A stretch of 64,000 bases of DNA from positions 1 through 64,000 of the IMG/VR virus record IMGVR_UViG_3300036651_001908; one strand, written 5' to 3'. Below the pieces are notes generated by a model that was given only the letters and a program-made list of their open reading frames with translations, was not told the origin of the DNA and made no database searches. This document shows, piece by piece, positions 3,125 through 56,320 of the stretch (positions within the stretch are counted from its first letter, which is position 1; each line of letters opens with the position of its first letter). A program made the translations under genes and the position numbers. The stretch is from a virus.

Positions 3125-3174
3125 GATTTGCTCCTCAGTGGTGGTGGTTGCCTTGATACTGCAATGGTAGCAGA

Positions 3175-3501
3175 CTACTTCACGCTGAACAAGCCCCACG
3201 GTCCAGGTGGTTCTGGATCCTTCTGCTCGGGCTTGCTCGTGCGCCTCCGGCTCGGGGATGCGTTGTAGCGCTCGCGGAGATACGCCTGCCGGTGCTGGCG
3301 GAACTCAGGGTCGGCACGGTACTTCTCGACCCACTTCGCGGCCTTCCGCTTCTTCTGGGCCTCATACTCTGCCGGGTGGTCCTTGCGCCACTGCTCGCGC
3401 CACTGCCGATTGCGCTCCAGCAATGCCTCCTTCTCTTCGGGGCTCATGTTCTGGTAGCGCTCGCGACGCCGATCGGCGCTGCTCTTCTTCTCATTCATCA
3501 T
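3175..3501 (-). CDS. Highly charged R/K/E-rich helical protein
   Basis: RBS AAGGAGG; repeated (Y/W)RE/RQ motifs. Confidence 0.7.
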   Translation of the reverse strand: MMNEKKSSADRRRERYQNMSPEEKEALLERNRQWREQWRKDHPAEYEAQKKRKAAKWVEKYRADPEFRQHRQAYLRERYNASPSRRRTSKPEQKDPEPPGPWGLFSVK

Positions 3502-39646: not shown

Positions 39647-41369
39647 CAACTCTGATCAGACCGAGCAGAGAAGCCTCAAGGGCATCGATGAGCATCAGGA
39701 CAAGAAGCCTGATCCCAAGTCGTATGAAATCGAAATCGGCACTGACCTCAACATGCCGTTCAGCACGCCGTTCAACGGCACTGCTCTCGGCGTGCAGAAG
39801 ACTGCTGACGAAGAACTCCAGGAGATTCGGCGCAACTCCGGCTGGGAGGTGGATGAGGGGCCGACCGTTCGGCAACTGGTCACCATGCGCCGTATGGACG
39901 GCCAGGCCCGTGCGCTCTACCGCCTGCTCTCGCTGCCTGTCCGTGCCGCGCTGAAGTCCGCGACGTTCATTCCGGCCAAGGGCGGCACGGCTGAGGCCGA
40001 CTTCATCTCGAAGGTCTTCACCACGCCCCCCGAGGGCGGCGGAATGTCCGTCACCTTCCACCGGGTGATGAGCCAGATCCTCCAGGGGCTCTTCGACGGC
40101 TTCGCGCCCTTCGAGAAGATTTTCTGGGTCCCGGACTACGGTCCCCTCAAGGGCAAGATCACGCTGAAGAAGTTGGCCTACCGGCCCAGCGAGACGATCA
40201 CCTTCATCACCGACCGGCAGGGCCACTTCCGAGGCTTCCGCCAGCGCGCCGTGATCATGGGCAAGGCCCTCGACGCATACATCCCCGCCTCCAACGCGTT
40301 CTACTACGCGGCCCAGGAGGAGGAGCGGAAGTTCTACGGAATCTCGTTCTTCCAGAGCGCCTTCTACCACTACGACAAGAAGGTCAAACTCTATTACATC
40401 GCCCACGTGGCGGCCCAGCGCTCCGCTGTCGGCACCCGAGCAGGCACTTACCCGCTGAACGCGAACAACGCGCAGCGCGGTGAGTTCGCCAAGTCGCTGT
40501 CGAACCTGAGCCTCGCGCAGTTCATGCTCATGCCTGAGAACTTCAAGGTGGAGATGCTGAAGGAGTCGGGCACGTTCGACTTCCTGGGCTACATCAACCA
40601 CCACAACAGCCAGATGAGCAAGAGCGTCCTCGCGGCGTTCTTCGACGCGAACACCGGTGCCGGAGCGAATGAGGGCTCCTTGGTGTCCTTCGCCGCCCCC
40701 GGCGACGACATGTTCCTGATGATGCTGCGCGCCGTGATGGACGACATCGCTACGGCGATCAACCACTACATCATCCCGCAGTTGGTGGACTTCAACTTCG
40801 AGGGCGGCAAGTACCCGGTCTTCAGTTGGGGCGAACTCACCGACGAGCAGCGTGCCGCGGTGGCGAACTCCTTCGACAAGTTGTCCATCGCTGGCCAGAC
40901 GATGAACGTCACGCCCGAGTTCATGCGTGCTCTGGAGCAGAAGCAGGCCAAGGAGATGGGCCTGGAAATCGACTACGACGCAGTCGAGAAGCGCGAGCAG
41001 GAGCAGCAGCAACAACTGGCTGGCGGCTTCCCGGGGATGCCTGGTGGGCTTCCTGGCATGGGCATGCCAGGTGCCTCCCCGATCGCAGCCGGTCCGGGCG
41101 CTCCGGGCGCTCCCGTCCAGCCCTCGATGGTCCCACCGAACCGGCTCACCCCGGGCGCTCCGGGCACCATCTCGCCGGTGCCGGGTCAGACGGGCATGCA
41201 GCAGGCCGCTGGTCGGACGACGACGCAGTTGAGTCCCGCGCAGCGCGTGGAGGCGTTCCAGTCCTCGCTGGCCAAGTTGACCGACGAGCCCGATCGGTAT
41301 GAGAACCTGTTGCGCCTCGCGTCAGAGATGCTGGACGAGACTCCGGAAGAAGATCAAGAGCCGTTCTGA
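39627..41369 (+). CDS. Portal protein (Mu gp29/DUF935-like)
   Basis: Follows terL; DGFAPFEKIF, YINHHNSQMSKSVLA, IIPQLVDFNF; P/G/M-rich tail. Confidence 0.9.
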   Translation: MSSSVGDNSDQTEQRSLKGIDEHQDKKPDPKSYEIEIGTDLNMPFSTPFNGTALGVQKTADEELQEIRRNSGWEVDEGPTVRQLVTMRRMDGQARALYRLLSLPVRAALKSATFIPAKGGTAEADFISKVFTTPPEGGGMSVTFHRVMSQILQGLFDGFAPFEKIFWVPDYGPLKGKITLKKLAYRPSETITFITDRQGHFRGFRQRAVIMGKALDAYIPASNAFYYAAQEEERKFYGISFFQSAFYHYDKKVKLYYIAHVAAQRSAVGTRAGTYPLNANNAQRGEFAKSLSNLSLAQFMLMPENFKVEMLKESGTFDFLGYINHHNSQMSKSVLAAFFDANTGAGANEGSLVSFAAPGDDMFLMMLRAVMDDIATAINHYIIPQLVDFNFEGGKYPVFSWGELTDEQRAAVANSFDKLSIAGQTMNVTPEFMRALEQKQAKEMGLEIDYDAVEKREQEQQQQLAGGFPGMPGGLPGMGMPGASPIAAGPGAPGAPVQPSMVPPNRLTPGAPGTISPVPGQTGMQQAAGRTTTQLSPAQRVEAFQSSLAKLTDEPDRYENLLRLASEMLDETPEEDQEPF

Positions 41370-42163
41370 TGACCTCGTACCGCGACCAGATCAGTGCCAC
41401 CGTTGGTGCTCACAGCGCGGTCAACTCGCTGGAGTCACAGGCACGTTCCCGTGTGGCAGCACTGATTCAGCAGTATGAAGCCGGACAGATCACTGGCCAG
41501 CAGATCCGCTACCGTCTAGAGAATCTGGTGCGCCAGGCGTATCGGGCGTCCGGCGAGATAGGCAGCAATCTGGTCGCTGCCCAGTCCGGACTGGAGGACT
41601 GGCAGCCGCAGGAGCGAGTCTTCTCCTCCGCGTACCTGAACGCGCTCCTCATGGATGTGCGCCGGAACCTCCAGGACTACAAGGCCTCGGAGCGGGATGC
41701 TCTAGCGCAGCGGCGACTCCAGTTGCGGATCCAGGCCTCCATCGGCGTCGGCACCCAGCGGGGCTACACCGACGCGCAACTCAAGGGCTACAAGGAACTC
41801 AAGGACTTCGGCTTCCAACTCCGCAAGGTCTGGTGGGCGAACTTCGTCAACAACACCCCCTGCCCAATGTGTGCTGCGCTGCACGGCAAGGACGTGGAAC
41901 TCGAAGAGGACTTCGGCCAGGGGCTGGGGACGAAGGTCTACCACAACCTGGAGGGGCCGCCCCGGCATCCGAACTGCCAGTGCACCCTGGTGGTGCTGAT
42001 CAGCACGCTGGAGAACGCCTACGAGGGCATGAACTTCGATGCCCCACAGAAGGTGGTCACCGACATGTCCACTGACCAGGTTCGCAAGATGCCGCTCGCG
42101 TTCTTCTTGGCCGTCGTCAAGACCCTGAAGAAGATCATCTCGAAGTTCGGACACAAGTCATGA
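41369..42163 (+). CDS. MuF-like head morphogenesis protein
   Basis: KVWW...CPMCAALHG...PPRHPNCQC. Confidence 0.88.
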   Translation: MTSYRDQISATVGAHSAVNSLESQARSRVAALIQQYEAGQITGQQIRYRLENLVRQAYRASGEIGSNLVAAQSGLEDWQPQERVFSSAYLNALLMDVRRNLQDYKASERDALAQRRLQLRIQASIGVGTQRGYTDAQLKGYKELKDFGFQLRKVWWANFVNNTPCPMCAALHGKDVELEEDFGQGLGTKVYHNLEGPPRHPNCQCTLVVLISTLENAYEGMNFDAPQKVVTDMSTDQVRKMPLAFFLAVVKTLKKIISKFGHKS

Positions 42164-42384
42164 TCGTCAGCACCAGTACCCGGTTCCTCTTCGACTCCTT
42201 TCCCTCCGCCGTGCTGGCGCTGCTGACCGTGCTTCAGGATGCCAGGATTACGGAGAAGGACTACACGTTCTCTGGCCTCGACCCCAAGCAGATCCGTACC
42301 AGTGGGCTCGTTCTCACAGGCGACATCACTGACATCTCCGCTGAACTGGAGAAGATCCCGGGCGCCGTCTCCTTCCCGGACTGA
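42160..42384 (+). CDS. Small hypothetical protein
   Basis: ATGA coupling. Confidence 0.6.
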   Translation: MIVSTSTRFLFDSFPSAVLALLTVLQDARITEKDYTFSGLDPKQIRTSGLVLTGDITDISAELEKIPGAVSFPD

Positions 42385-42461
42385 CTCCGAAAATCTTGTT
42401 TGGCTGCTCCGGTCGATAGTCCCTTCGTGGGCGAAATCTTGTTGGCGCCCGACGACAGGAG

Positions 42462-45400
42462 ATGGCCTTGAGCGACCTCGATCCGTACGAGGAGATTCTT
42501 CTCCTGAGTCTCGGGATGCGGCACGTCCGTACCCTTCAGGGCGCTGAGTTCTTCCATCTCCCTCTCGGTGCGTTCATTACGCCGGAGGAGATAGAGGCGG
42601 CCACGGCAGCCAACGGGGGCGATCTTGCGCAGGATGCGGCCGAGGCAGCGCAGGATGCAGCCGAGGCCCAGTCCGACGAAATTGCGGACAAGGCGGAAGC
42701 CGCGCAGGATGCGCAGGCCAAGGCAGCGAACGCTGCTTCCAAGATCGCCAAGTTCAAGTTCAAGGGCGTTCCGCCTGGCGCCCTGGGCACGAAGAGTGAG
42801 GCGGAGAAGTCCGCCGCGGCATATGCCAAGAACCCGTCAGCCACGATCTTCAAGAACCTCCCGAGCCACCACCCGTACAACCTGCCCGCAGATCACCCCC
42901 GGCACCTTGCTCCCCCCGCTTCCGAGGCGGCTGCCCTCGCGCTGGACCACCAGCATCACCTGGTCAGCGGCAACCCCGACACGCAGTTCCAGCCCCACCC
43001 GTCAACGTTGACCGGTCCGAACGAGTTCTCCGTCGGGCCGATGAAGTACAACGTCCCGGCTGGTTCCCGGATGTTCCAGCCCAAGGGCATGCCGAACGTC
43101 CGCATCCTCATCACGCCGGACGAGACCGTGCACGCCTTCACCCACGTGGGCGAAGTCGATGTCCCGATGGATCTTCAGCAGGCCTTCGCTGACGTGCTCC
43201 CCCCGGGGGCGAAGAGCAACGATCTTTACCAGACGAAGAACTTCGATGTCGCCGCTCCGGTCACCAGCGACCTGAAGGCGCACATCCAGAACACCCACGA
43301 CACCAAGGCCGCCGCGCGCTATGCCGCAGCCCTGGTGCAGAGCGACCACGCCAACACGGCGGCGGCAGCCGCATCCCCTCCTGCCAAGGGTGCTCCGCCC
43401 GTGGAGCCGCCCGCTGCCATGACCCCGGAGGAGGCGGGGCAGCACGCGTCGATCACCGGTGCGCTCATGCACGCGCACCCCGGGGCAGAACTGGTCAACG
43501 GTGATGGTGAGACCGAGTTCATCAAGCAGCCCGATGGCACGTGGAAGCACGCGCTGTTCAACGCCACGGTGGATGAGTCCGTCGTCCAGAAGTTGGTCAC
43601 CTCGGGCGAACTCCACATCAAGGGTGCTGCTCCCGGCCTGACTCATGATTTCAAGGGCATGTCCAAGGAGCAGTGGCTCGCGTTCTTGAACAAGGCTCCC
43701 GTAGGGGCCAAGTTCCAGATCGACGGCAAGGACATGGTCAAGGGGGAGGACAAGACCTGGAACGGCATTCCTGCCGAGAAGATGGGCACCCTCCGGCTCA
43801 TCGCCAACAACTATGAGGACGGCACCGGCCCGGCTATCCCGAAGAAGGAGGCACCGGCCAGCCCGTACTCCGCTCCGCAGGAGGCGTGGAAGGAGTCGCC
43901 GGTTCCCACCGGGCCGGACCAGATCACGGCCGCCCAGATTCAGGTTGGGGACAAGGTCAATGGCGACCCGGTCACGAAGACCTTCAAGACCGAGACCCCC
44001 GGTCGCGTTCGCGTTGTCACGCGGAGCGAGGCCGGAATGCTCCAGGAGCATTCCTGGCTGAAGACGACCCAAATCGGGGTGGAGCGAGCCAACCACGGTC
44101 TGTCGTTCGATGAGAAGTACCCGAACGCGAACAACGGGAAGCCCAACACCGGGAAGTCGATGAACGACTTCACCAACACTCCGGGTGGAGGCACGGCAGG
44201 TCAGGGTCTCAACACGCCTAAGAAGGCGGACGCGGGTAGTGTAGAGAAGCCCGCAGCGGCTACCCCGCCGCCCAAGAACGAGAATCTGGCTAAGCCGGAG
44301 TATCAGCCATTCGTAGCGCCGAAGGAGAGCAATGTCGGATCAGAAGCCGGAGCAGGAGCAGGTGGAAACCAACCTGCAAGCGGGAACGCTCAGCCCGCAG
44401 GATCGGGAAACGTTCCTGCACATGATGGCGGGAACGGCAACGCCAACGCCGGATCAACTGGTGGATCTTCAGAAGCAGTGGCCGGACAGCAACATCCTGA
44501 TGGCAATGGGGCTGGGCCTGGGGTAATCCCCCCCGAAATCGTCAAGGGTGAACTGCCGCATTCTCCTGCGGTCCAGGCCCTCGCCGCGAAGGGGCTTGTC
44601 ACCCCGCAGATGGTCGAACTCCACGCCGACAAGGGCGCGCAGTTCTTCCAGGACGCCATCTCCCGGCTCAAGGAGAACAACCCCTACGCTGCTGCTGTCT
44701 ACGTCCACCCGGTGGACGAGTACAAGAACATGCGGCTCTTCGTCACGCAGGACGGCACCGCTGGCTTTGCCGTCGATGGGAACAACGCCGTCTCGCTGTT
44801 CATCAGCCCGAAGTCCCCGCACAAGGGTGGCTCGGTCGCGATGCTCACGATGCAGACCGAACTCGGTGCCCGGCGTCTCGACGCCTTTGACACTGTGCTG
44901 CCCGGGATCTACGCCAAGGTCGGCTACGTGCCGTCCGCCCGCGTGAAGTGGGATGACAACTACGCCCCGGACGGCTGGGACAAGAACACCTTCAAGCCGT
45001 GGAACAACGGCGAGCCTGACGTGGTGTTCATGGTTCATGATCCTGCCCACTCGGATGGCACGTACCACCCGGGCGAGGGCAAGGTGTTCGCCTCCTACGA
45101 CCAGGCGGAGGCGTTCACCAAGAAGGCCGCGCTCAACCCGAGCCTGGTCAACCCGGCCAACACCACGCCGGGAGAGGTGCACCACCAGCCCGGTGAAGTC
45201 CTGTCCCACCAGGATCTGAAGAGCCTGCCTCCGGGGCACACGGTGGAGCACACGCCCTCCGGAGTTCAGTACACCAGCCAGGGCCAGGGCCAGTTCCTCT
45301 CACACAAGAGCAACGGCGTCGGTGATGTCGGCCTGATGAAGACGGCTGCTGACGCGGGCAAGATGGCGTACCACTCCAAGACCTCGGGCGCAGCCCCGGC

Positions 45401-48400
45401 TCCGGAGAAGGCTCCTGAGCCCCCGGCCGCCACTGAGGTTCCCAAGGCTCCCGCCGCGCCCCCGGCCGCTCCCGCTCCGGAGAAGAAGTCCGGTCCGGCG
45501 ATGAAGAAGGCCGAGCAGTTGACCAAGGGCGACAAGATCGCCACGGGCACCGTCTTCGGCGTCGATCACATCAACGCGCCCAAGGGCAAGGTCCACGTCT
45601 ACTACCACAACCACAAGGGCGTCATGCAGAAGGGGGAGTGGAACAAGTCCACTCTCATCGGTTACGAGGCCCCGAAGGCTGCCACGCCTGCTCCTGAGAA
45701 GGCTCCTGAGCCCGCAGGATCTGGTGGTGGGGCCGCGCAGCCTCCGACGCCTCCCGAGGCGCCTGCCGCGCCCAGCGGGGGCAATGCGGAGGGGTCTGGC
45801 TCGTCCGACTCCAAGCAACTGTGGGAGAACGGTCCGCAGTTCAGCACGCAGGACATCCAGGCGGCGCACGATGCGCTGAAGAACGCCGGTGCGTTCCAGG
45901 TCTCCTACGGCTTCAAGAGCATCCCCAGCAACCCGCTGGCGAGCCACCAGGCCGAACTCAAGGCCGAGGCCAAGAAGCAGTTCCCGACGATGCAGCCGAA
46001 GGCCGCCGTCGTGAAGTTGCTGCACAACCAACTCTCCCCGGAGCAGAAGGCGGAGAGCAAGGCCGAAGAGGTCGCGAAGATCCACATCGGAGCCAAGGAG
46101 CCGAAGCCCACACAGCAGGGCTTCAACGGTGGTGACTACACCGCAGACGAAATCCGGCACGCCATTCAGGCGCTGGAAGCCGACAACGGCAAGTTGGTGA
46201 AGTCCATTCTCAACAAGGCGGGCAGCCCGCTTGGTGAGTTGAGCCCGATCACGTTGCCGGAGGTGGGGTTCAACAAGGACAAGACCATCACCAAGCAGAA
46301 GTTCATCGACCACCTGAAGAGCCTGCTGCCGAAGGAGACTGGCCCGAAGAAGGTCACGGTCCGTCCTGAGAAGGACATCACCACCGGCACGATCGGCACG
46401 CCGCTGGAGAAGGACGGGCGCTTCGTCGCCCCGCCCAAGGCCGCTCCGAAGAAGGTCACGGTCCGCCCCGAGAAGGACATCACTACGGGCACGGTGGGTA
46501 CTCCGCTGGAGAAGGATGGGCGCTTCAAGGCCAAGGAGAAGTTGCCCCATCAGCCGGGCGACCTCCTTACCGGTGAGCAGGTCAAGGCTCTCCCGGATGG
46601 GCACGTCATTGCGTGGCACACCCATGACGGTGCGACCCACCCCGATGTGCAGCACACCGGGATCAAGGCGGGCGACAAGGTCAACAACGACCATGGGACC
46701 CAGAACAACGTCAGCACACTTGCCATCGTGGCTAACTCGCACGATCCGAATTCTGCTTCTGTGATGAACAAGCATGGCGTTCACTACGTGGGCGGTCCCG
46801 GTGCAACGAAGTTGGATGTCTCGAAGTACAAGAACGAGTTCTCCAAGGCCGAAGAGCCGAAGTTGCCCACTGCATTGGAGAACTTCGACAAGCCTGAGGA
46901 CACCGGACACGGACTTCAGCCGGGCGACCACGTTGATCAGGCTGCCTTCGACAAGTTGGTTCCCGGTGACCAGATCAAGACCTACCCGGGGGGCACGGTT
47001 TACTACACGCTGATGCCCGGTGGTCAGTCCTTCGAGTCCAGCCTGTCCGGCAGTCTCTTCGACAAGGAGGAGATGAACCCGACGGCCTACACCGGCATGG
47101 AGTTCAAGGGGCATGATGCTTCTCATGACGCTGTAACCCCGTCGGCTACCCCTGCGGCCTCTGAGGCTGAGATGCAGACGCACGACCAGGCTGTGGCGCA
47201 GACCCAGGAGTTCACTCCAGCGACGCAGGACCAGATCAACAACGCCGGTGTGGGCTCGCAGATGATCCTTCACTCAGTGAATGGGACTGAGTATCCCTTC
47301 ACCATGGGTACTAACGGTCAGTGGCACAACCCTCAGATGGGTGAGTTCAGCCCCGACCAGATCGATGCCAGCAAGGGTCATTTCGAGATGACCAAGGAAC
47401 TCAAGAAGTTGCCGACCGGCGACCCGAAGACCGTCGAGGAGATGCACGCCTTCCCGGAGAAGACGCAGTTCACCTACCACGCTGCATCCGGGACGATCTA
47501 TGACGCGGCTAAGTCCACCTCGGGGACCGTGCAGATTGCAGGCCTGGGCAACTACACGCCCGAGGGTGTGAAGGACCAGATCACAGCCGGGAAGTTCCAT
47601 GTGGAGCACATCCCCACTCCCGACGCTCATCCGCTCTCCCCTGCGGAGGTCGCTGCTCTCGGTGTGGGTTCCCGTGTCTTCTACTCGGGCGGCTTCGGTC
47701 GCGTCCTGGAGCGCAAGCCCGACGGCATGTGGCAGAGCCCCGGTGGGCAGGATGTGGGAGACGTTACCGGCATCGGTACGGCGCCCATCTACCTGGTCTC
47801 CGAGGCCGACAAGGGCGACCCGGCGAACATCGGCTACAGCCCTGAGATTCTGGATGCCAAGCCGAACAGCGTCGTGACCTACGCCGACGGTGCCGTGGCC
47901 AAGAAGATGGCCTACGCCTGGAACCTGTACAACTCGGATGGCGAGAGTGGAGGCACGCTCAACCCGGCCGTCGTCGCGCAGGACGTAGCCGATGGGCACG
48001 CGACACTGACCCACACCCCCACCGAGGCACAGCCCTTCGCACCCGGGAAGTACATCTCCAACGGCAAGGCCGCCATGCACGTCCTCCCGGACGGCACCGG
48101 TGTCTACGTCGCGAGCACGGGCACGACTTCCAAGTTGTCCAAGGCGAACGTGCTGAAGAACCACGACGCCGGGATGAGCAACTACCTGGGTGCCAACCAC
48201 CCGGTGCCCGAGATTGCGCCCAAGGAGTCGAAGGCTCCTGGTGCGGTCACCAAGGCTGCCGTTGCCGTTCCGACGAGCAAGGACATCCCGGATGGCAACT
48301 ACTACCTGAAGTCCAAGGCCGGTGACAGCATTCTCGTTACTGCCAATGGTCAGCAGGTGGCGAAGAACGGCGAGAACATCGGTGACCTGAAGAAGTTGAA

Positions 48401-51400
48401 GTTGGCCTTCAACAAGGGCCAGATCCTCGACCTCAACGGCACCTCGATTACACCGGTTGGCTACTCCGGTGGTGTCTCCCTGCTCGATACTCCGACGACC
48501 ATTCCGGCTTTGCTCGACCTCCAGAAGTACCTGGATCAGCATCCGGACCTGTTCAAGACGCCCTACTGGTATGGCGTCACGGACAACTTGTCCGCTGCGG
48601 GTTTCCCTCTGTCGTTGAGCGCATTCGTCAAGGCGTACAACGAAACGGCCGGTCCGGGGATGGCAGCCACCACCGGGCACTACTTCATGCAGGACGCACC
48701 CGCGGATGTGAAGGAGGCGATGGCCAACTTCTTCTCGCAGTCGGTCGCAAATCTTCTTGCGAAGGTGGACACGGCGATCCCCGACGCCAACACGTCGGCC
48801 CTGTTCGACTGGACGACGAACGGCCAGGCGAAGCCCCCGCTCCAGTTGGTCTCGATCCCGAAGATCAGCAGCAGCACCGACCCGGCCACGCTCAACGCGT
48901 ATGTGAAGCAGATCACTGAAGCACTCGGCGCGCAGAAGATTTTCAACCTGACCGGCATGACCAAGTACGCCAAGATGGATTGGATCAACGCGGTCAAGAA
49001 GGGCAACTTCGCCCACGCCTACGATTTGGAGGTCGCGTCACACTCGAACAAGGGGAAGGTGCACCCGTCGGGGTACCTGCACCCGGGCTACGAGGGCAAT
49101 GCGGCGACGAACAAGATCCAGTGGGGTCCCGCAGTCGAGGGCGAGGTCCCGGCTGGTGTTCCGGTCGAGGGTAACTGGACCTCCATCGGTGTGGCTGCTT
49201 CCACCGAGGAGTTGCAGAACTACCTCATCGCAGCGCACATGCAGCACCCGGAGCACCTGACCCTCGCGCAGCAGCGTTCCTGGGTCACGTACCACCGCAC
49301 CGGAGACAAGCAGGCCACGGATCAGTTGTCCGCCATGGCGGCTGTGAAGGCGCAGAACGGCGACCCTCAGATCAGTCCGACTCCGGTGTGGACGGACAAC
49401 GTCCAGCCTGCGAAGTCGTACGCCGTGTGGTTCGACAAGGGTCCGTTCCCCACCGAGAACGACATCTACAACGGGCTCACCGACGCCCCGGCCGAGTACC
49501 TGAAGGACAACGCCGGGAACGCCGAACTCCAGAAGTCGTGGGACGCCTGGTCCTCGCCGTACAAGAACAACTACACCAGCCTTCAGGATATGGCACACGG
49601 CGGCTCCTGGGGCACGCAGAAGAAGTTCCTGACGGATCACTTCACCCGGCTCCGGGAGGAGGCTGCGGCGGAGGAAGCCAAGCCGAAGTTCTCGTTGGTG
49701 AAGGAGATTGCCCAGGGCCAGCATCCCGCCTACCTGGTGGAAGACCACGGCAATCAGTACATCTTCAAGCCGGTGGATCCGGGCAAGGACTACCGTGCAG
49801 AAATCGAGGCGGCTGCCCTGCAACTGGGCGCGCTCTGGGGCTTCACGGAGCCGACGGCATCCGTCCAGTCTCTACCGACTGCCTCCGGCGAGCCCATGTT
49901 CGGTGGCCAGGTTGGCCTCCTCCAGTCCCTGATCCCGAACGTCGGGAACATGAACTTCGCTGACGGCCCGGTGGACATCGCGAGCCTGCACCCGAAGCAG
50001 TTGGGCCAGATCGCTGCCGAGCACGTCCTGGACTGGGCGATCGACAACAACGACGGCCACGGCGACAACCTCCTGATGACCCCGGACGGCAACATCGTCG
50101 GCATTGACAAGGGTCGTGCCTTCGCTGCCTTCGGCACCTGGGACGGGCTGAACGGCCCCGGCATGAACTACCAGGCCGAGACCATCGCTTCCAAACTGTT
50201 CATGCTGGCCAAGGCCGGTGTGCTCACCCAGGAGCAGATGGATGGCGCGTACAAGGCGGCGCTGAAGGCTGCGAACAAGATTTTCAAGTCGCCGGATGCA
50301 TCGGCTGTCTCGATCATCGCGAAGGGCCTGGCGAACCGGCCGCACTACCAGCAGGGTCCCGGCTCGAAGGAAGCCGTCATCCAGGCCTTCCTCGATCGCA
50401 AGCACGGGATCGTGGATGACATCAACAAGTTGTGGACGGGGATCTACGCCAAGTCCGGACTGACCAAGCCGGAGCCTCCCGTCAAGGCCTTGAACGAGGA
50501 CTTGCAGTCTGGCTTCCATGAGCCCGACCTCAGCGCGGCCATTCAGGACAAGGCGGTGTGGGGCGTGACCACGTTCCACGCTTCTCCGGACATCAAGAAG
50601 GGTTCCGTCCTGATTTGGCAGGAGAAGAACTCCAACGGCGATCCGGTCGCCAAGGGGCTGTTCGCCGTCAACAAGTACGCCGAGGGCAAGTTGCTGTCCT
50701 GGCTTGATGGCCATCTCAGCACTGATACCAGTGGCTCGTACGCGAGTGCGCAGTCGCTGGCCAACTTCCCGAACATGGAGCCCTTCCGCAAGGCCCTCTC
50801 CACCGCGGGTCGCGAGGTCAGTGATCACCTGGAGTCCGGGAACCCCAGCCCGGAGGTCATGCAGAAGTTCCAGGAGACCAAGGATCAACTTCTTGCGGAT
50901 GCCCAGTTCGGAGACACCCTTCCCGTCACTGCTGGGCAGGGCACCGATCCGATCAAGTTCCCCTCGGGCAATGCAGTGGATCCGGGCGCGCTGGGTCAGT
51001 ACCGTGCTGCGCTCACCCACTACCTGGACGCCGCTTACGAGGTGGAGCAGGCGCAGAAGGAGCAGCGTAAGACCGAGAAGTCACTGTTCGGGATCTACCA
51101 CCCGATCGCGGCGAAGACCACTCCGGCCACCTACCTGAACCCGGAGAAGGGTCTGGCCTACACCGAACTGACTACCGGAGACTTCATCACGAACATGGGG
51201 GTTGTGGTTCCGGCATCGCAGTTGCCTGACGGGGCGAAGGAGGGCTTGAACGGCTGGACTGCCATCAATGGGGCTCAGCAGTCCAGCGGGCTCACGGTGG
51301 TGAAGGAGCACGCGGGCGACCTGGCCGGGGCACTGAAGGAGGGCGGGCTCAAGGAGCAGTCCGACACCTTCAGCACCGCGGGCCACAATGGTTCGGAGTA

Positions 51401-52547
51401 CGTCGTTCATCTGACTACCGGTGAGTACATCCGGTTCCGTAACAGCGATCACACCAGCACCGATCAGTCGCAGTGGGACCAGATCCGCTTCCGGCTCTCC
51501 GGTTCCGATCACGAGGCCAGCCTGTCTCGGGTGGAGGCCGTGCTCAATCAGATGGGCCTGGACATGTCCGGGGCCGAGCCTGAGCACACGGAGGACATCT
51601 ACTGGAAGGAGATGTTCAATGCTCTGATCGGCAGCAGTCAGCAGATTCCGGCTGCTCAGAAGCAGGTTCTCGAAGACATGGCGCAACTCCGGAATGACCT
51701 CATGACGGAGCATGGTGTCTCGTACGACGGGATTGCGGACAAGCACCTGATCGAAGCCATTGCGGCGTCGAAGACGGTTGTTCCGGATCAGCATCAGTTC
51801 TGGCACGACAAGGCGGTGCAGGCATTCGGCCAGAAGAAGGTCGATGAGTGGCTGGCTGCGGAGAAGCACCTGCCGCAGTTCCAGCACTTTGATCTGGCCA
51901 ACCCGGAGAAGACGACCGGTCACGCTTTCTGGAACCGGCTCGACTTCACCCTGGAGCAGATCCTGGCGAAGCAGACGCTGCTTGGTCAGGGCACCATGGG
52001 TAAGGACAAGTCGTTGGCCAACTTCATCAAGTCCGGTAACTCGATCAGCACCGAGGAGCGCTTGCGCATGCTTGGTGTATTCGGTCACGGTATCTCGAAG
52101 GAGTCCGACCAGCCCAAGGGTGGTGCCAACTACGTCTTCGCCCGTACCGCCTATGACAAGGCGAAGTACGAAGGGGCTGCGGGCTTCGGTCCGCACGTCA
52201 TCTACTGGAACCCGGCGCTGTTCTTGCAGACCGGAACCAAGGGGTTCAACTACGACGCGTACGGCGAGCAGGACTCTCTATATAGAGCACAGGCCGACAT
52301 CCTGAAGGCACTGCGCCACGGGAACATGGACAACGAGACCGACATCCAGAACGCCATCTCCGTCTTCGACTACATGGAAATCATGATCTTCGATCTGGCA
52401 GAGAACCGCAATGCCGCGATTCAGAAGATGAAGGCGCTCGGACATGCCATACTGCGTGGTGTACCCATCGAGGAGCGGCTGATCATGCGTCAGGACGTAA
52501 ACAAGGCCATGGCGACCGTCATGGCGGCGTGGGGGAAGAACACATGA
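42462..52547 (+). CDS. Giant (3361 aa) polyvalent-type multidomain protein, putatively packaged and ejected
   Basis: Uninterrupted ORF with RBS AGGAG. GNAT-like block at about 44640-45140, kinase-like block at about 49680-50460, ART-like C-terminus. No Cys seen. Confidence 0.9.
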   Translation: MALSDLDPYEEILLLSLGMRHVRTLQGAEFFHLPLGAFITPEEIEAATAANGGDLAQDAAEAAQDAAEAQSDEIADKAEAAQDAQAKAANAASKIAKFKFKGVPPGALGTKSEAEKSAAAYAKNPSATIFKNLPSHHPYNLPADHPRHLAPPASEAAALALDHQHHLVSGNPDTQFQPHPSTLTGPNEFSVGPMKYNVPAGSRMFQPKGMPNVRILITPDETVHAFTHVGEVDVPMDLQQAFADVLPPGAKSNDLYQTKNFDVAAPVTSDLKAHIQNTHDTKAAARYAAALVQSDHANTAAAAASPPAKGAPPVEPPAAMTPEEAGQHASITGALMHAHPGAELVNGDGETEFIKQPDGTWKHALFNATVDESVVQKLVTSGELHIKGAAPGLTHDFKGMSKEQWLAFLNKAPVGAKFQIDGKDMVKGEDKTWNGIPAEKMGTLRLIANNYEDGTGPAIPKKEAPASPYSAPQEAWKESPVPTGPDQITAAQIQVGDKVNGDPVTKTFKTETPGRVRVVTRSEAGMLQEHSWLKTTQIGVERANHGLSFDEKYPNANNGKPNTGKSMNDFTNTPGGGTAGQGLNTPKKADAGSVEKPAAATPPPKNENLAKPEYQPFVAPKESNVGSEAGAGAGGNQPASGNAQPAGSGNVPAHDGGNGNANAGSTGGSSEAVAGQQHPDGNGAGPGVIPPEIVKGELPHSPAVQALAAKGLVTPQMVELHADKGAQFFQDAISRLKENNPYAAAVYVHPVDEYKNMRLFVTQDGTAGFAVDGNNAVSLFISPKSPHKGGSVAMLTMQTELGARRLDAFDTVLPGIYAKVGYVPSARVKWDDNYAPDGWDKNTFKPWNNGEPDVVFMVHDPAHSDGTYHPGEGKVFASYDQAEAFTKKAALNPSLVNPANTTPGEVHHQPGEVLSHQDLKSLPPGHTVEHTPSGVQYTSQGQGQFLSHKSNGVGDVGLMKTAADAGKMAYHSKTSGAAPAPEKAPEPPAATEVPKAPAAPPAAPAPEKKSGPAMKKAEQLTKGDKIATGTVFGVDHINAPKGKVHVYYHNHKGVMQKGEWNKSTLIGYEAPKAATPAPEKAPEPAGSGGGAAQPPTPPEAPAAPSGGNAEGSGSSDSKQLWENGPQFSTQDIQAAHDALKNAGAFQVSYGFKSIPSNPLASHQAELKAEAKKQFPTMQPKAAVVKLLHNQLSPEQKAESKAEEVAKIHIGAKEPKPTQQGFNGGDYTADEIRHAIQALEADNGKLVKSILNKAGSPLGELSPITLPEVGFNKDKTITKQKFIDHLKSLLPKETGPKKVTVRPEKDITTGTIGTPLEKDGRFVAPPKAAPKKVTVRPEKDITTGTVGTPLEKDGRFKAKEKLPHQPGDLLTGEQVKALPDGHVIAWHTHDGATHPDVQHTGIKAGDKVNNDHGTQNNVSTLAIVANSHDPNSASVMNKHGVHYVGGPGATKLDVSKYKNEFSKAEEPKLPTALENFDKPEDTGHGLQPGDHVDQAAFDKLVPGDQIKTYPGGTVYYTLMPGGQSFESSLSGSLFDKEEMNPTAYTGMEFKGHDASHDAVTPSATPAASEAEMQTHDQAVAQTQEFTPATQDQINNAGVGSQMILHSVNGTEYPFTMGTNGQWHNPQMGEFSPDQIDASKGHFEMTKELKKLPTGDPKTVEEMHAFPEKTQFTYHAASGTIYDAAKSTSGTVQIAGLGNYTPEGVKDQITAGKFHVEHIPTPDAHPLSPAEVAALGVGSRVFYSGGFGRVLERKPDGMWQSPGGQDVGDVTGIGTAPIYLVSEADKGDPANIGYSPEILDAKPNSVVTYADGAVAKKMAYAWNLYNSDGESGGTLNPAVVAQDVADGHATLTHTPTEAQPFAPGKYISNGKAAMHVLPDGTGVYVASTGTTSKLSKANVLKNHDAGMSNYLGANHPVPEIAPKESKAPGAVTKAAVAVPTSKDIPDGNYYLKSKAGDSILVTANGQQVAKNGENIGDLKKLKLAFNKGQILDLNGTSITPVGYSGGVSLLDTPTTIPALLDLQKYLDQHPDLFKTPYWYGVTDNLSAAGFPLSLSAFVKAYNETAGPGMAATTGHYFMQDAPADVKEAMANFFSQSVANLLAKVDTAIPDANTSALFDWTTNGQAKPPLQLVSIPKISSSTDPATLNAYVKQITEALGAQKIFNLTGMTKYAKMDWINAVKKGNFAHAYDLEVASHSNKGKVHPSGYLHPGYEGNAATNKIQWGPAVEGEVPAGVPVEGNWTSIGVAASTEELQNYLIAAHMQHPEHLTLAQQRSWVTYHRTGDKQATDQLSAMAAVKAQNGDPQISPTPVWTDNVQPAKSYAVWFDKGPFPTENDIYNGLTDAPAEYLKDNAGNAELQKSWDAWSSPYKNNYTSLQDMAHGGSWGTQKKFLTDHFTRLREEAAAEEAKPKFSLVKEIAQGQHPAYLVEDHGNQYIFKPVDPGKDYRAEIEAAALQLGALWGFTEPTASVQSLPTASGEPMFGGQVGLLQSLIPNVGNMNFADGPVDIASLHPKQLGQIAAEHVLDWAIDNNDGHGDNLLMTPDGNIVGIDKGRAFAAFGTWDGLNGPGMNYQAETIASKLFMLAKAGVLTQEQMDGAYKAALKAANKIFKSPDASAVSIIAKGLANRPHYQQGPGSKEAVIQAFLDRKHGIVDDINKLWTGIYAKSGLTKPEPPVKALNEDLQSGFHEPDLSAAIQDKAVWGVTTFHASPDIKKGSVLIWQEKNSNGDPVAKGLFAVNKYAEGKLLSWLDGHLSTDTSGSYASAQSLANFPNMEPFRKALSTAGREVSDHLESGNPSPEVMQKFQETKDQLLADAQFGDTLPVTAGQGTDPIKFPSGNAVDPGALGQYRAALTHYLDAAYEVEQAQKEQRKTEKSLFGIYHPIAAKTTPATYLNPEKGLAYTELTTGDFITNMGVVVPASQLPDGAKEGLNGWTAINGAQQSSGLTVVKEHAGDLAGALKEGGLKEQSDTFSTAGHNGSEYVVHLTTGEYIRFRNSDHTSTDQSQWDQIRFRLSGSDHEASLSRVEAVLNQMGLDMSGAEPEHTEDIYWKEMFNALIGSSQQIPAAQKQVLEDMAQLRNDLMTEHGVSYDGIADKHLIEAIAASKTVVPDQHQFWHDKAVQAFGQKKVDEWLAAEKHLPQFQHFDLANPEKTTGHAFWNRLDFTLEQILAKQTLLGQGTMGKDKSLANFIKSGNSISTEERLRMLGVFGHGISKESDQPKGGANYVFARTAYDKAKYEGAAGFGPHVIYWNPALFLQTGTKGFNYDAYGEQDSLYRAQADILKALRHGNMDNETDIQNAISVFDYMEIMIFDLAENRNAAIQKMKALGHAILRGVPIEERLIMRQDVNKAMATVMAAWGKNT

Positions 52548-52849
52548 ACATCCAAGGTGACCCTCGGGTCGAAGTGAAGCGGGTCTTCCCCTACGGGGCT
52601 CAGGCGGCGACGGAGAATCCGAATCAGCCGGACTTCAAGATCGTGGATGTCCAGGTCAAGCAGGCCGCGGATGGTGAATGGATCATGGGCGGCTGGGCCT
52701 ACCCGAACAAGATGATGACCTTCGAACTCGCGGACGCCACCGAGACACCCCGAGGCTGGATCGTCTACAAGGGCAGCGTCCGCTACCTGCTCACCCCGCT
52801 GAGCCAGCAAGTGGGGCAAGCGCTCTACGCGGAGATTGAGGCGATCTGA
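52544..52849 (+). CDS. Hypothetical protein coupled to the giant gene
   Basis: ATGA overlap with the giant gene stop. Confidence 0.75.
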   Translation: MNIQGDPRVEVKRVFPYGAQAATENPNQPDFKIVDVQVKQAADGEWIMGGWAYPNKMMTFELADATETPRGWIVYKGSVRYLLTPLSQQVGQALYAEIEAI

Positions 52850-53133
52850 TGGCGCTCTATCTGATCCACTGCAAGCCCAATGGTGAGCCGGTCGGGATCT
52901 GGGACGACACCGGAGACCACGTCTACGCCGATCCGAAGTACGAGACCCGGGGGCAGTTGACCTTCGACTCCCGTGGGTCGAAGAACCCGTGGTCCTCCTT
53001 CGTGGACGGACTCAGTCGGGGCACGCCGCACGCTTCGCTGTGGCAGTCCGATGACACCCCGCTGGACAAGGGACAGGCGCTTGATCAGGCCCGGAGCCAG
53101 TACCAGGGGCTCAACAAACCTCCGCTCCGATAG
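52849..53133 (+). CDS. Hypothetical protein
   Basis: TGATG coupling. Confidence 0.75.
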   Translation: MALYLIHCKPNGEPVGIWDDTGDHVYADPKYETRGQLTFDSRGSKNPWSSFVDGLSRGTPHASLWQSDDTPLDKGQALDQARSQYQGLNKPPLR

Positions 53134-53144: not shown

Positions 53145-54683
53145 ATGACTGATGTAGCGGAAGTTGATGTTGACAACTCGCGCCCCCGCCTGAGTGGGGG
53201 TGGTGAGGGCCTTCTGCGCCCGGACTTCGGGTTCGCCGCAGCCGCCGCATCTCTACTGGGATGCGACCTCTCCCACTGGAACGGTGCCGTTGACATCGCG
53301 AAACTGGGCGCCCAGTTCGTCATCCTCAAGTTGGGGGGCTCGGATTCGGGCCGCTACACCGACCGGATGTACTCCACTTGGGCTCCCGAGGTTCGTGCCG
53401 CGAAGAAGCACCTCGGGCACTATTGGTTCAACGGAGCCGGTGACCCCGTTGCGGACGCCCGGTACTTCGTCGCGAACCTCTCGCACTACCAGGACGAGGA
53501 TCTTCTTGTTCTAGACATTGAGTCGGAGATTCCGGGTACGCCATGGACTCCGTCGCATGCTCTGGCATGGTTCAAGGAGGTCCGGGCGCTGAAGCCGAAG
53601 GCTCGGCTCGTGGCCTACATGTCGTCCTCCGTGACGACTGCTTTCGATTGGTCCGAGGTCGTCAAGTTCGGTGTCGAACTCTGGGTCGCGAACTACGGAG
53701 CCAACACCGGGAGCAAGCCGTCGGGCACCCCGGTCGTCGGGCACTGGAAGAACTGGATCATCTGGCAGTACACCAGCGTCGGTCGCATCGCGGGTGTCCC
53801 CGGTGCGGTGGACCTCAACTTCGCACACCCCAGCCTCTTCGCTCCGCTTCCTGCTCCGACGCCGGTTCCCAAGCCGGTTCCCAAGCCTGTCCCCGCTGTG
53901 CCTACCAAGGCCGAGGGCACAGCCATTCAGGAGTGGGCCAAGCACGGTGGCTACACGGGTCCGATCGATGGTGACCCGCAGAAGTACACCTGGACGGCCT
54001 GCCAGGTCCTGCTCAAGAAGGACTGGGGCTACACCGGCATCGAGGACGGCGTTCCGGGCACCCTCACTTACGAGGCGTTCGAGCGTTTGGCCAAGGCTAA
54101 GGGCGGCTACACCGGCTCGGTGACCAATGGTGTGCCCGACGCTGCCCTCTGGGCTGCGGTCGCTAAGGCTGTCACCCCGGCCCCTGCGCATGTTCCTGCC
54201 CCGGTTCCTGCGCCCGCACCTGCTCCGGCCCCCAAGCCGATCCCAGCCCCTACTCCTACCCCGGCGCCTGTTCCCGCTCCGGTTCCCCCCAAGGATGACG
54301 CCATGCAGACCATTTACTCCCGTACCTTCGCTCCGAATCAGCCTGTCAAGCCCGCTGAATGGACCACCGTCGAACTGGACGGGAAGGGTGTCTTCTCCTT
54401 CATCATCGCCAATGAGGATGGGAACTACGACATCAACGCGTCGTTCCAGTTCGCAGGCATCCCGGTGGGAGACAGCGCGCAGGCACGTCTAGCGATCGTG
54501 GACGCCAACGGCAAGGTGCTGCACCAGACGCCGGTGGTGGAGTTCGCGGGCACGCCCGGCAGCACCTTCGCTGCCCTCGGGCGCTTCGTCGCACTGAAGA
54601 AGGGCGAACGTCTTCGCGTGCAGGTCGCGGCCTTCACGCCGGGCGTGGTCCTGGCCCGCGGCGACGTGCAGTGGCACTCCTAG
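53145..54683 (+). CDS. Endolysin: GH25 muramidase, peptidoglycan-binding repeats and C-terminal beta domain
   Basis: GCDLSHWNG, GHYWF, LDIE, LWVANY, WQYTS.G; GYTGPIDG / GYTGIEDGVPG repeats; Pro-Ala linkers. Confidence 0.92.
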   Translation: MTDVAEVDVDNSRPRLSGGGEGLLRPDFGFAAAAASLLGCDLSHWNGAVDIAKLGAQFVILKLGGSDSGRYTDRMYSTWAPEVRAAKKHLGHYWFNGAGDPVADARYFVANLSHYQDEDLLVLDIESEIPGTPWTPSHALAWFKEVRALKPKARLVAYMSSSVTTAFDWSEVVKFGVELWVANYGANTGSKPSGTPVVGHWKNWIIWQYTSVGRIAGVPGAVDLNFAHPSLFAPLPAPTPVPKPVPKPVPAVPTKAEGTAIQEWAKHGGYTGPIDGDPQKYTWTACQVLLKKDWGYTGIEDGVPGTLTYEAFERLAKAKGGYTGSVTNGVPDAALWAAVAKAVTPAPAHVPAPVPAPAPAPAPKPIPAPTPTPAPVPAPVPPKDDAMQTIYSRTFAPNQPVKPAEWTTVELDGKGVFSFIIANEDGNYDINASFQFAGIPVGDSAQARLAIVDANGKVLHQTPVVEFAGTPGSTFAALGRFVALKKGERLRVQVAAFTPGVVLARGDVQWHS

Positions 54684-55216: not shown

Positions 55217-56320
55217 ATGGCTACCGGTCGTGCAATCGTCCCCCCAGTGCGGGGTGAGGGATTCGTAGAACTCGCGCGCTCGCGCAAGGGCCGCGTCTTC
55301 GAAAAGCAGATCCTCAATTACGGGGACCTGCTCTACCCGGGTGTCAAGGGTGGCAAGGTCCACATCGATGACGAGTGGGCCGACAAACTCATCACGAACT
55401 TCTCCAACGGAGTCTGCGACATCGTCCAGGTTCCGAAGGCTGGCCCGAATAACGAGCACACCGAAGACCCCGATCGCAACATCGGTGAGGTCATTGGGCT
55501 TGTGAAGCGCAACGGAAAGATTTACGCGCACCTCGATGCTCGTGATGCTGAGGCGGCTGAGAAGTTGGGCAAGACCCTTCTCGGGGCGTCAGCGATGCTG
55601 CACCTCGACTACACCGACACCAAGACGGGATCGAAGGTCGGGCCGACTCTTCTCCACGTCGCGGTCACAAACCGCCCGTATATCACGGGTCTTGAGGACT
55701 TCGAGGAAGTCCTCGCTGCTTCTGCCGATGGTAGTGGCGAAGAGGTCGTCATGCTGACGGCTACGGACAATCAGGAAGGAAGCGTCATGACGCTTGAGGA
55801 ACTTCTTGCTGAGTTGAAGTCTGAGCACGGCATCGACGTTGCCGAACTCCAGACCAAGGCTGAGCAGAGCGAGATGGCCGCAGCCCTCTCCAACAAGATC
55901 GAGACCGAACTCGGTACTGCTGGCGTGCTCACGCTGAGCAATGGCGAGAAGGCAACCGCAGACGAACTCATCAACGCCATCGGAGAGGCCGGTCAGAAGA
56001 TCGTCTCCCTCTCCTCGCGGGTGGACGAGTTGGTCGAGAAGGGTGCCAAGGACGCGGCGGCCTCTCGGGTCGAGGGTCTGGTCCGTAGCGGCCACATCCT
56101 CCCGAAGAACAAGGACGCCCAGATCGAACTTCTGCTCTCGAACAGCGACCTGTTCGAGAAGTTGCTTCCCGAGAAGCCTCTCGTGAAGTTGTCCAACAAC
56201 GAGGAGGACGGCGAAGCCGGATTCCACGTCGAGGACGACCAGCAGAAGCAGACCGTCGAGGCCGAAGTTGCTCGTCTGACCCAGGTGGCAGACCAGCAGC
56301 GCGGGTTCGTTCGTTCCTGA
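55217..56320 (+). CDS. Capsid maturation protease / scaffold fusion (Mu gpI-like)
   Basis: NEH...GASA.L...Y.D...GPTLLHVAVTNRPYI; acidic helical C-terminal half; CCGATAGT-N7-ATG. Confidence 0.88.
   Translation: MATGRAIVPPVRGEGFVELARSRKGRVFEKQILNYGDLLYPGVKGGKVHIDDEWADKLITNFSNGVCDIVQVPKAGPNNEHTEDPDRNIGEVIGLVKRNGKIYAHLDARDAEAAEKLGKTLLGASAMLHLDYTDTKTGSKVGPTLLHVAVTNRPYITGLEDFEEVLAASADGSGEEVVMLTATDNQEGSVMTLEELLAELKSEHGIDVAELQTKAEQSEMAAALSNKIETELGTAGVLTLSNGEKATADELINAIGEAGQKIVSLSSRVDELVEKGAKDAAASRVEGLVRSGHILPKNKDAQIELLLSNSDLFEKLLPEKPLVKLSNNEEDGEAGFHVEDDQQKQTVEAEVARLTQVADQQRGFVRS

Follow-up and report, generated by a model that had tools for sequence, protein, structure and literature searches.

A cysteine-free protein of 3361 residues with GNAT-, kinase- and ADP-ribosyltransferase-like domains in a viral head module: a probable packaged polyvalent cargo

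The DNA considered here, called the window, comprises positions 1 to 64,000 of the IMG/VR virus record IMGVR_UViG_3300036651_001908, and represents the first 64 kb of a record of 123,755 bp with an estimated completeness of 99%. Among its head genes lies a giant open reading frame (ORF), whose product is probably a polyvalent head cargo protein, packed in the capsid and delivered to the host together with the DNA. A previous reading of the sequence, made without database searches (the sequence-only reading), had described this product as a cysteine (Cys)-free protein beside MuF and had proposed it to be an injected effector uniting a GNAT acetyltransferase, a kinase and an ADP-ribosyltransferase (ART). 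The features recognised along the giant ORF, with positions in amino acids (aa) in brackets, are as follows.

42462-52547, + strand: giant ORF, 3361 aa, 0 Cys, Lys-rich (7.3%) and Arg-poor (1.5%)
42489-42596, + strand: candidate N-terminal docking motif (aa 10-45), a short helix followed by RHVRTLQGAEFFHLPLGAFIT
42999-43247, + strand: second N-terminal island (aa 180-262), conserved across nearly all giants and also present in Magritte gp17
44598-45047, + strand: GNAT-fold acetyltransferase-like domain (aa 713-862), AlphaFold2 model
45789-46421, + strand: module M3 (aa 1110-1320), two similar halves, in relatives and in giants without the C-terminal block
48393-52544, + strand: family-defining conserved C-terminal block (aa 1978-3361), 30-37% identical to relatives P0002-P0009
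48939-49481, + strand: domain X (aa 2160-2340), strongly conserved, with invariant W, G, P, E, N and Y columns
49686-50486, + strand: PI3/4K-/HipA-like kinase domain (aa 2409-2675), with K2436, E2449, D2531-x-H2533-x-x-N2536 and I-D2549-K-G-R
51384-51866, + strand: small alpha/beta unit and helical bundle before the ART domain (aa 2975-3135), from the secondary structure of the model
51939-52496, + strand: predicted ART fold (aa 3160-3345), closest to DarT, with E3292, R3200, R3202 and D3265 invariant

The reading frame is uninterrupted over its 3361 codons, and the description of the protein as Cys-free and adjacent to MuF is borne out: a MuF gene lies upstream, and no Cys codon (TGT or TGC) is found in frame, against 91 and 121 in the other two frames. 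Cys represents 0.92% of the residues in the other likely genes of the window (103/11,237 aa), from which ~31 would be expected in the giant, with a probability of finding none of ~4e-14. When the baseline is limited to the head genes (portal, MuF, GH25, protease, decoration and major capsid protein (MCP); 7 Cys in 2214 aa), ~10.6 would be expected, and this probability is ~2e-5. The basic residues are also skewed, the Lys/Arg ratio being 4.7 in the giant, with 3-7% Arg in neighbouring proteins, and 142 pooled giant relatives contain 7.7% Lys and 2.5% Arg. This composition runs counter to the G+C bias of the window (~62% G+C), and explains the positive AT skew over the gene. His is elevated as well (3.5%). 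The skew in Arg, Lys and His may reflect contact with DNA in the capsid, avoidance of proteases or self-modification.

All the motifs quoted in the sequence-only reading are present in the translation, and the N-terminal one is conserved in relatives, with R20, V22, T24, G27, P34, G36 and I39 invariant in 10 sequences. In the giants of related loci (numbered L003 onwards) it takes the form R-[KR]-V-R-T-P-E-G-x-x-F-Y-G-x-P-I-G-x-x-I-T, after the first 5-30 residues. The nearest named phage is Microbacterium phage Magritte, whose portal is 59.5% identical to that of the window and whose gp17 (1991 aa), syntenic with the giant, has only the N-terminal islands in common with it. A profile of aa ~9-52 was compared with every ORF of 40 codons or more in the window and the related loci, and the motif was found on the C-terminal tails of portals from L003/L031 (4e-11), L013/L039 (2e-9), L014 (1e-10), L016/L035 (5e-8), L019 (7e-12) and L020 (4e-11), with weaker matches in L012/L042 (6e-5), L015 (5e-4) and L032/L033 (2e-3).

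L003:2264-4123, L013:1429-3300, L014:3777-5897, L016:1746-3623, L019:5983-8034 and L020:6099-8126: motif-bearing portals

The same motif stands at the N-terminus of a MuF-containing protein in L017 and L018, and on proteins of 105-145 aa located between portal and MuF, the remainder of which resembles a portal tail (Magritte gp14, L010, L011/L034, L040, L044-L046 and L047). It is also carried by two further large Cys-free proteins, of 1044 aa (L006/L038) and 676 aa (L036). The cargo behind it varies: in L032/L033 the motif precedes GNAT, M3 and NUDIX cargo, without kinase or ART, and in L036, L043-L046, L047 and Magritte gp17 it lies ahead of cargo without any recognisable domain. The motif proteins with such other cargo in L032/L033, L036, L043-L046 and L047, loci retrieved with the N-terminal alignment, contain 0 or 1 Cys each. 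Taking into account that the motif is common to portal tails, MuF and variable head-module cargo, it is most simply understood as a candidate signal for loading into the head.

The portal of the window ends just before the position of the motif, and in Magritte (gp14), L010, L011, L044 and L047 the portal tail corresponds to a gene of its own. A literature search on proteolytic processing of the Mu portal gave no usable result. The genes of the two further large motif proteins (L006:1037-4168 and L036:6162-8189) precede the giant gene within its head module, and some phages may load several cargo proteins. A complex prediction of MuF with the N-terminal 280 aa of the giant gave values of 0.00 and 0.01 against a mark of 0.32; it was made without controls and was used neither way. 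The second N-terminal island has no match in PDB or Pfam. A profile of the N-terminal region retrieved chance-level rows only from the PDB sequences, the Pfam scan of 10 N-terminal members revealed no consistent family, and a search with the N-terminal alignment among proteins of 491-2000 aa found none.

Eight full-length relatives of 2522-3476 aa and 27 other giants with one module in common were retrieved by a word-indexed search, the modules delimited by BLAST being aa 10-130, 172-275, 700-890, 1110-1320, 1850-1960 and the C-terminal ~1978-3359. An exhaustive phmmer search with aa 2162-3361 retrieved 737 clusters (50%-identity representatives) at E<=1e-3, 190 of them at <=1e-30, mostly of 2500-4200 aa and with a subgroup of 1050-1375 aa. 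This family of 737 clusters is annotated by neither Pfam nor NCBIfam.

The Cys content was surveyed in 151 representatives of the family, the motif pattern being sought in the first 200 aa. Those bearing the motif (58/151) contain 13 Cys in 172,886 aa, Cys being absent altogether from 49 of them. Where the pattern found no match, the 55 representatives of 2000 aa or more, which include truncated or variant ones, contain 52 Cys in 155,750 aa, and the 38 shorter than 2000 aa contain 282 in 46,330 aa, the forms of 1050-1375 aa having mostly 8-17 each, scattered through the kinase and ART regions. Outside the family, 27 polyvalent proteins of other lineages, with only the GNAT module in common, contain 19 Cys in 80,463 aa, and Magritte gp17 has none in 1991 aa. 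The MuF fusions Caron gp4 and McProf gp54 have 4 Cys each, all in the MuF zinc ribbon. The virion RNA polymerase (vRNAP) of phage N4, cited in the sequence-only reading as a large ejected protein without Cys, has indeed 0 in 3500 aa, with 0.4-1.2% in the N4 replication proteins. Thus, the same enzymatic block contains Cys in the short forms devoid of the motif but has lost all of it in the motif-bearing giant, so that the avoidance is a property of the format and not of the domains.

L014:6728-10636, L019:9308-13261 and L024:9008-12652: short domain X-kinase-ART forms (1214-1317 aa), in the same slot as the giant, without the motif

Among these short forms, those of L014 and L019 have 14-15 scattered Cys and that of L024 has 2, and in L014 and L024 the short ORF shares its reading frame with the MuF-like match before it. 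The short forms may not be packaged. A small number of literature searches, covering texts without their supplements, found nothing relevant on Cys avoidance in ejected phage proteins.

The first of the three enzyme-like domains had been placed by the sequence-only reading at about 44640-45140. When aa 700-895 were modelled together with 14 homologous stretches, the resulting structure (predicted local distance difference test (pLDDT) 93) retrieved GNAT acetyltransferases in all listed rows of the Foldseek search against the PDB (best 2kcw, 1.6e-4) and in all 50 listed rows of VIA-align (Z 8.6-10.5), so that the top 50 rows of both searches were all GNATs. The VIA-align rows include RimI (5isv, Z 9.6), NatA subunits (9.5-9.8) and 1y9k, with a root-mean-square deviation (rmsd) of 3.0 over 131 aa. 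By its predicted structure, then, aa 713-862 adopt the GNAT alpha/beta fold. Pfam matches among 15 members were below threshold: Acetyltransf_7 at 1.3e-3 (one member), Acetyltransf_1 at 0.11 (two) and Acetyltransf_10 at 0.13 (one), and the profile of the region retrieved only chance-level rows from the PDB sequences. The loop of GNATs that binds the pyrophosphate of acetyl-CoA has the consensus R/Q-x-x-G-x-G/A; in the giant family, the loop after the strand IVSVF is variable, being KGSAR or KGSGR in members and HKGGS in the window.

The link with MuF-associated polyvalent proteins proposed in the sequence-only reading is also confirmed, since this GNAT module travels with PF18760 and PF18857 and is found on MuF C-termini, and the kinase module occurs in MuF-ART fusions. 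Thus, aa 700-890 align with 35-47% identity with giants carrying PF18760 (ART-PolyVal), PF18857 (LPD38), PF23802 and PF01464 (SLT), the MuF 'minor capsid protein' of Microbacterium phages Caron, UtzChips and Barnstormer ends with this module, and it appears as a stand-alone 'acetyltransferase' in R4-like Streptomyces phages. Ahead of this domain, 44237-44526 encodes a Gly/Asn/Ala-rich low-complexity linker, the composition of which may simply account for the odd codon usage there. For the next module, M3, the ESM Atlas gave no usable lead with aa 1105-1325.

The second domain, anticipated at about 49680-50460 as a phosphatidylinositol 3/4-kinase (PI3/4K)- or HipA-like kinase, has been recovered as such. 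In an alignment of 20 sequences K2436 (in F-K-P), E2449, D2524, N2529, D2531, N2536 and I-D2549-K-x-R2552 are invariant and His2533 nearly so, the loop of the window sequence being D2531-G-H2533-G-D-N2536. The PI3_PI4_kinase consensus comprises a catalytic loop D-R-H-x-x-N, a DFG-type metal-binding Asp and an ATP-binding Lys. The D-x-H-x-x-N and I-D-x-G elements and the upstream Lys and Glu of the PI3/PI4-kinases and HipA_C are kept in the giant family. Against PF00454 the window sequence obtains an E-value of 0.0018 and 18.7 bits, and is not assigned to this family because its score falls under the gathering cut-off of 27.1; it has no match to HipA_C itself. The 20 members match PI3_PI4_kinase in 9 cases at E<=1 (best 4.8e-7), HipA_C (PF07804) in 6 (9.5e-8), Fam20C in 3 and HipA_2 in 1, which situates the family between PI3/4K, HipA and Fam20C. 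The ten best PDB rows obtained with the kinase profile are all PI4KB or PI4KA (E 0.07-0.12), aligned on the catalytic loop and the DFG equivalent. Judged from these signatures, aa 2409-2675 are taken as a PI3/4K-HipA-type kinase that retains the full set of catalytic residues, while belonging to neither Pfam family. The module is also found inside the MuF-ART fusions of Mycobacterium prophages (McProf gp54).

A stand-alone kinase homologue of 271 aa (L021:9995-10807; 37% identity, 3 Cys) is encoded on the L005 contig, ~60 kb from the giant gene. In the genome to which the window belongs, searches revealed no paralogue of either the kinase or the ART region. Domain X, which precedes the kinase, gave chance-level rows when its profile was compared with the PDB, and the ESM Atlas offered no usable lead for aa 1975-2380.

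The weakest of the three calls had been an ART fold at the C-terminus, and this one too finds support in the predicted structure, so that both the GNAT and the ART domains, when checked by modelling, gave the expected folds with Foldseek and VIA-align. The model of the last 402 aa, built from 19 sequences, has a pLDDT of 84 and a predicted template modelling score of 0.84. Foldseek places SopF, an ART effector of Salmonella, first (1e-3), followed by DarT (0.02-0.07, probability 0.87-0.99) and, in lower rows, OspC3/CopC, Tpt1 and PARP1. In VIA-align, DarT1 (8baq) is best, with Z 10.9 and an rmsd of 3.5 over 161 aa (model residues 201-386), and three more DarT entries reach Z 10.4, 9.2 and 9.1, well above unrelated rows; below them come SopF (7.2), yeast Tpt1 (6.7), OspC3 (5.9) and CopC (5.8), with classical ART toxins at Z 3.5-4.5 and CteC, Scabin, LT and pertussis toxin also listed lower. 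The helical part that precedes the domain aligns, together with the ART itself, with SopF and OspC3.

The invariant residues of the ART region are E3292, R3200, R3202, S3212, D3216, D3265 and G3268, and a [FY]-[TA]-R strand is mostly conserved. E3292 opens a beta strand in the model, as does the catalytic Glu of ARTs, the NAD-binding and catalytic triads of which are H-Y-E or R-S-E; E3292, R3200 and R3202 are candidate residues of a putative ART active site. No Pfam ART family matches any of the 19 ART-region members, and the profile of the region retrieved chance-level rows from the PDB sequences, the ART piece alone finding only the window protein's own fragment. Since the fold matches DarT and yet none of the 19 members is matched by the Pfam ART families, the C-terminal domain is, as modelled, a sequence family of the ART fold that Pfam does not recognise.

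The resemblance to DarT, the toxin of the DarTG system that ADP-ribosylates DNA, has to be taken as one of fold. The four DarT entries are the best structural matches of the domain (rmsd 3.5-3.9 over 152-161 residues), but the identity is only 7-12%, the domain of the giant is embedded behind a helical domain, as in SopF and OspC3, and neither Pfam ART matches (0/19) nor a DarG-type partner were found. In a library of viral structures the matches were mostly uncharacterised proteins, including baculovirus and iridovirus ORFs and a Mycobacterium phage protein; a baculoviral ORF28 family has been assigned to DarT-like ARTs, as described in PMC9503650.

Between its modules the giant contains Pro/Ala/Gly/Lys-rich linkers and small repeated beta-type units. 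Windowed self-BLAST revealed internal repeats at aa 459-541/993-1069 and aa 908-965/1363-1426, and Tandem Repeats Finder detected one 21-bp, 2-copy repeat only. Such an architecture would also suit an extended structure, and it could be considered that the protein is mainly a structural ejection or conduit protein, which after release would prolong the tail channel so that it crosses the thick envelope of actinobacteria, or would form an inner body in which the DNA is organised, with the enzymes as accessories. In addition to its length, linkers and many small beta modules, the SLT lysozyme domains of related polyvalent proteins and the presence of a GH25 muramidase gene two genes downstream in the head module agree with this role, which has been proposed by its authors for phi24B gp47 (bioRxiv 10.64898/2026.04.10.717836). 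However, the best-conserved part of the giant is the enzymatic C-terminal block, with its invariant residues of catalytic type, and not the linkers, and domain searches detected in it no membrane-spanning or peptidoglycan-degrading domain. The conduit proposal is therefore rather unlikely as the main function, although it is compatible with a cargo protein and does not exclude it.

The surroundings of the giant gene correspond to a head module.

37775-39646, upstream of the giant: large terminase gene (TerL)
39627-41369, upstream: Mu-type portal (PF06074, E 1.5e-31)
41369-42163, + strand: MuF-like minor head protein, 264 aa, with a 4-Cys zinc ribbon, a separate gene (PF04233, PHROG head-morphogenesis)
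42160-42384, + strand: 74-aa protein, candidate adaptor or chaperone, between MuF and giant, its start overlapping the MuF stop
52544-52849 and 52849-53133, + strand: two small ORFs linked to the end of the giant gene by overlaps (ATGA at 52544, TGATG at 52849)
53145-54683, + strand: GH25 muramidase, 512 aa, inside the head module between giant gene and protease
55217-56320, downstream of the giant: Mu-I-like protease/scaffold
56361-56795: decoration-like gene, then the major capsid gene

The order TerL-portal-MuF-74aa-giant-protease-MCP is kept across the related loci. Among the loci retrieved with the C-terminal block, plus Magritte, the protease/scaffold, decoration and MCP genes follow the slot in 21/21 with a downstream flank present, and MuF precedes it in 17/19 with an upstream flank present, without a match in L010 and L015; these counts include the near-duplicates L005/L008 and L017/L018, L020 is cut, and L021 corresponds to a different place. 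The MuF match to PF04233 (E 2.4e-6) is slightly below the cut-off and is accompanied by several PHROG head-morphogenesis matches, and its zinc ribbon (C165, C168, C203, C205) is invariant in 10 homologues. ORFs of 72-76 aa homologous to the 74-aa protein (37-57% identity) occupy the same gap in 10/10 places (the window and 9 loci), Magritte gp16 being the Magritte counterpart, and a profile of this gene matches most motif-bearing loci, with none in L010, L015, L017, L018 and L022. An overlapping ORF in another frame (42239-42547, 102 aa) was rejected as a real gene, having no tblastn match and no conservation; it is 42160-42384 that is conserved. Of the related loci, only L011 has a partial match to the GH25 protein at the corresponding position, and this protein may be a virion-associated lysin rather than the endolysin.

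Searched with tblastn, the second small ORF after the giant (94 aa) is matched at that place in 9 related loci, compared with 2 for the first, and no known family was found for either. Their translational coupling invites the proposal that the giant is not packaged, acting as a late cytoplasmic enzyme complex or as a polymorphic toxin of the MuF neighbourhood, freed at lysis, that acts on the producer or its neighbours, with the coupled genes encoding immunity proteins or inhibitors. MuF polymorphic toxins with downstream immunity genes have been described (Jamet et al. 2017, PMC5576092), and short Cys-containing kinase-ART forms without the motif do exist. The fusion that characterises those toxins is not seen here, MuF being separate and the giant having no MuF domain. 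Moreover, the enzymes would need cytoplasmic ATP, acetyl-CoA and NAD+, and no secretion or entry domain was detected; the avoidance of Cys in the giants but not in the short forms would have no explanation if both worked in the same cytoplasm; the N-terminal motif is common to portal tails and MuF; and no Macro or NADAR domain, as expected of a DarG-like antidote, was found in the 123.8-kb genome. Altogether, an unpackaged enzyme or toxin is considered improbable.

The long linkers and small beta modules resemble, in turn, displayed arrays, and an external head fibre or decoration for adhesion could be imagined, in which Cys avoidance would derive from extracellular exposure; the fact that extracellular proteins of Gram-positive systems are often Cys-poor counts in its favour. 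However, three cofactor-dependent intracellular enzyme folds would be senseless outside the cell, and the phage has a separate decoration gene at 56361-56795. Furthermore, the motif is located on portal C-terminal tails, which in solved portals face the capsid interior, and this also counts against a fibre, making it highly implausible.

Packaged cargo thus being the preferred explanation, the closest precedents are the polyvalent proteins, defined in 2017 and predicted to be injected (PMC5512222; PMC9503650). Like those described in the main text of Iyer, Burroughs, Anand, de Souza and Aravind (PMC5512222), the giant unites ART, kinase and GNAT in one polypeptide and is encoded with head-morphogenesis genes beside MuF and portal; it has at least two disparate domains, a head-gene neighbourhood (adjacent to MuF, unfused) and homologous domains in common with them. 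It differs from what is described there in having no MuF fusion, no known LPD, peptidase or ART-PolyVal domain, and an N-terminal motif of its own. Its kinase is PI3/4K-/HipA-like, unlike the truncated Ser/Thr/Tyr-type clade of prophages from Verrucomicrobia, Chlamydiae and Bacteroidetes, and its ART is DarT-like by fold, with no Pfam ART match. The word 'cysteine' is absent from the main text of PMC5512222, the supplementary domain tables of which might list the family.

Caron gp4 (MuF-GNAT) and McProf gp54 (MuF-kinase-like-ART) are the nearest in gene order. The former has a homologous GNAT (38-40% identity), in the slot after the portal and before the scaffold, and the latter a kinase-like module with ~29-30% identity in the same slot, the cargo being Cys-free in both. 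Unlike the giant, which is accompanied by a separate MuF and a 74-aa gene, their cargo is fused to MuF and is 3 to 6 times shorter. N4 gp50 (vRNAP) is similar in its ~3500 aa and lack of Cys, and is packaged and ejected into the host. However, no sequence or domain relation with it was found, and N4 is a podovirus with a different head module; an N4-like RNA polymerase identity for the giant was discarded, no such domain having been found. The 2811-aa gp47 of phi24B is, by its description, another giant polyvalent protein of a head module, which is abundant in virion proteomics and invisible in cryo-electron microscopy (bioRxiv 10.64898/2026.04.10.717836), and its LPD38 domain co-occurs with the GNAT module of the window in P0015, P0017 and others. 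As described, phi24B differs in being a Shiga-toxin podovirus of E. coli, with LPD5, LPD1, LPD38 and a MuF-C peptidase in gp47. The concept of polyvalent cargo is therefore known; what is new here is the family, its types of kinase and ART, the separate MuF with a portable motif, and the compositional signature.

Several observations weigh against a packaged and ejected enzyme cargo. The evidence that the giant, or any relative, is present in virions or ejected is indirect. In the window, the motif is found on the giant only, the portal and MuF of the phage lacking it. MuF is a separate gene, so the classic argument from fusion is not directly applicable. Other structural proteins of this phage are likewise Cys-poor, its portal, MCP and decoration proteins having 0 Cys. 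Relatives of ~1300 aa with normal Cys and no motif occupy the same slot, and these short Cys-containing forms indicate that slot position alone does not enforce Cys avoidance. The window sequence is below the Pfam threshold for GNAT, kinase and ART alike, and the GNAT and ART assignments rest on predicted folds, because the corresponding profiles gave chance-level rows against the PDB sequences. Finally, no peptidase domain for self-processing was found in the giant. As regards other functions, the Pfam scan recognised no LPD, peptidase, ART-PolyVal or MuF domain, and searches of the whole giant against PDB sequences, NCBIfam and PADLOC gave nothing useful.

Delivery is suggested by the location of the gene, by the domains in common with other cargo proteins, by the N-terminal motif and by the avoidance of Cys, and the packaging, ejection, catalysis and targets that we infer would be organised as follows. 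The giant would be made late, with the head proteins, and its N-terminal motif would load it into the procapsid, the candidate partners of this motif being the portal core, MuF, the 74-aa neighbour and the protease-scaffold. It would then be ejected through the tail with the DNA, largely unfolded, a route that fits small domains on long linkers, without Cys and hence without disulfide or metal cross-links. Once in the cytoplasm of the host, the domains would regain their folds, and the GNAT, the kinase and the DarT-like ART would draw on acetyl-CoA, ATP and NAD+, respectively, to modify host proteins or nucleic acid while the cell is taken over or its defences are countered. Protein N-terminal acetyltransferases are among the structures nearest to the GNAT, nucleic acid is a possible target of the ART in view of its DarT-like fold, and the substrate of the kinase is not fixed by its HipA and PI3/4K relatives. 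The effector interpretation of the sequence-only reading is thus supported in part: its three domain calls stand, but the suggestion that the protein primes transcription of the early array has no support, since nothing bears on it and whole-protein domain searches detected no RNA polymerase or transcription-related domain.

A bolder version of this reading, which is offered tentatively, is that the ~35-residue motif would be a transferable capsid-loading signal, that the cargo would be under near-absolute selection against Cys and Arg and exit unfolded through the tail, and that the kinase and DarT-like ART block would constitute an injected take-over module marking host DNA or proteins. If this were true, the motif and Cys-freeness would predict the ejected proteome from sequence alone, and the block would be a previously unrecognised activity acting within seconds of entry.

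Enzymes that are packaged in the head and injected reach the host before any other phage weapon, and few have been studied beyond T4 Alt and N4 vRNAP; in this respect, the family offers a concrete three-enzyme cargo to test. The motif could serve to find or engineer packaged proteins in actinophages, and Cys avoidance, if it holds up, flags ejected proteins in any phage genome. Finally, a phage-borne DarT-like ART would mean that a fold known above all from anti-phage toxins is used by a phage as its own weapon.

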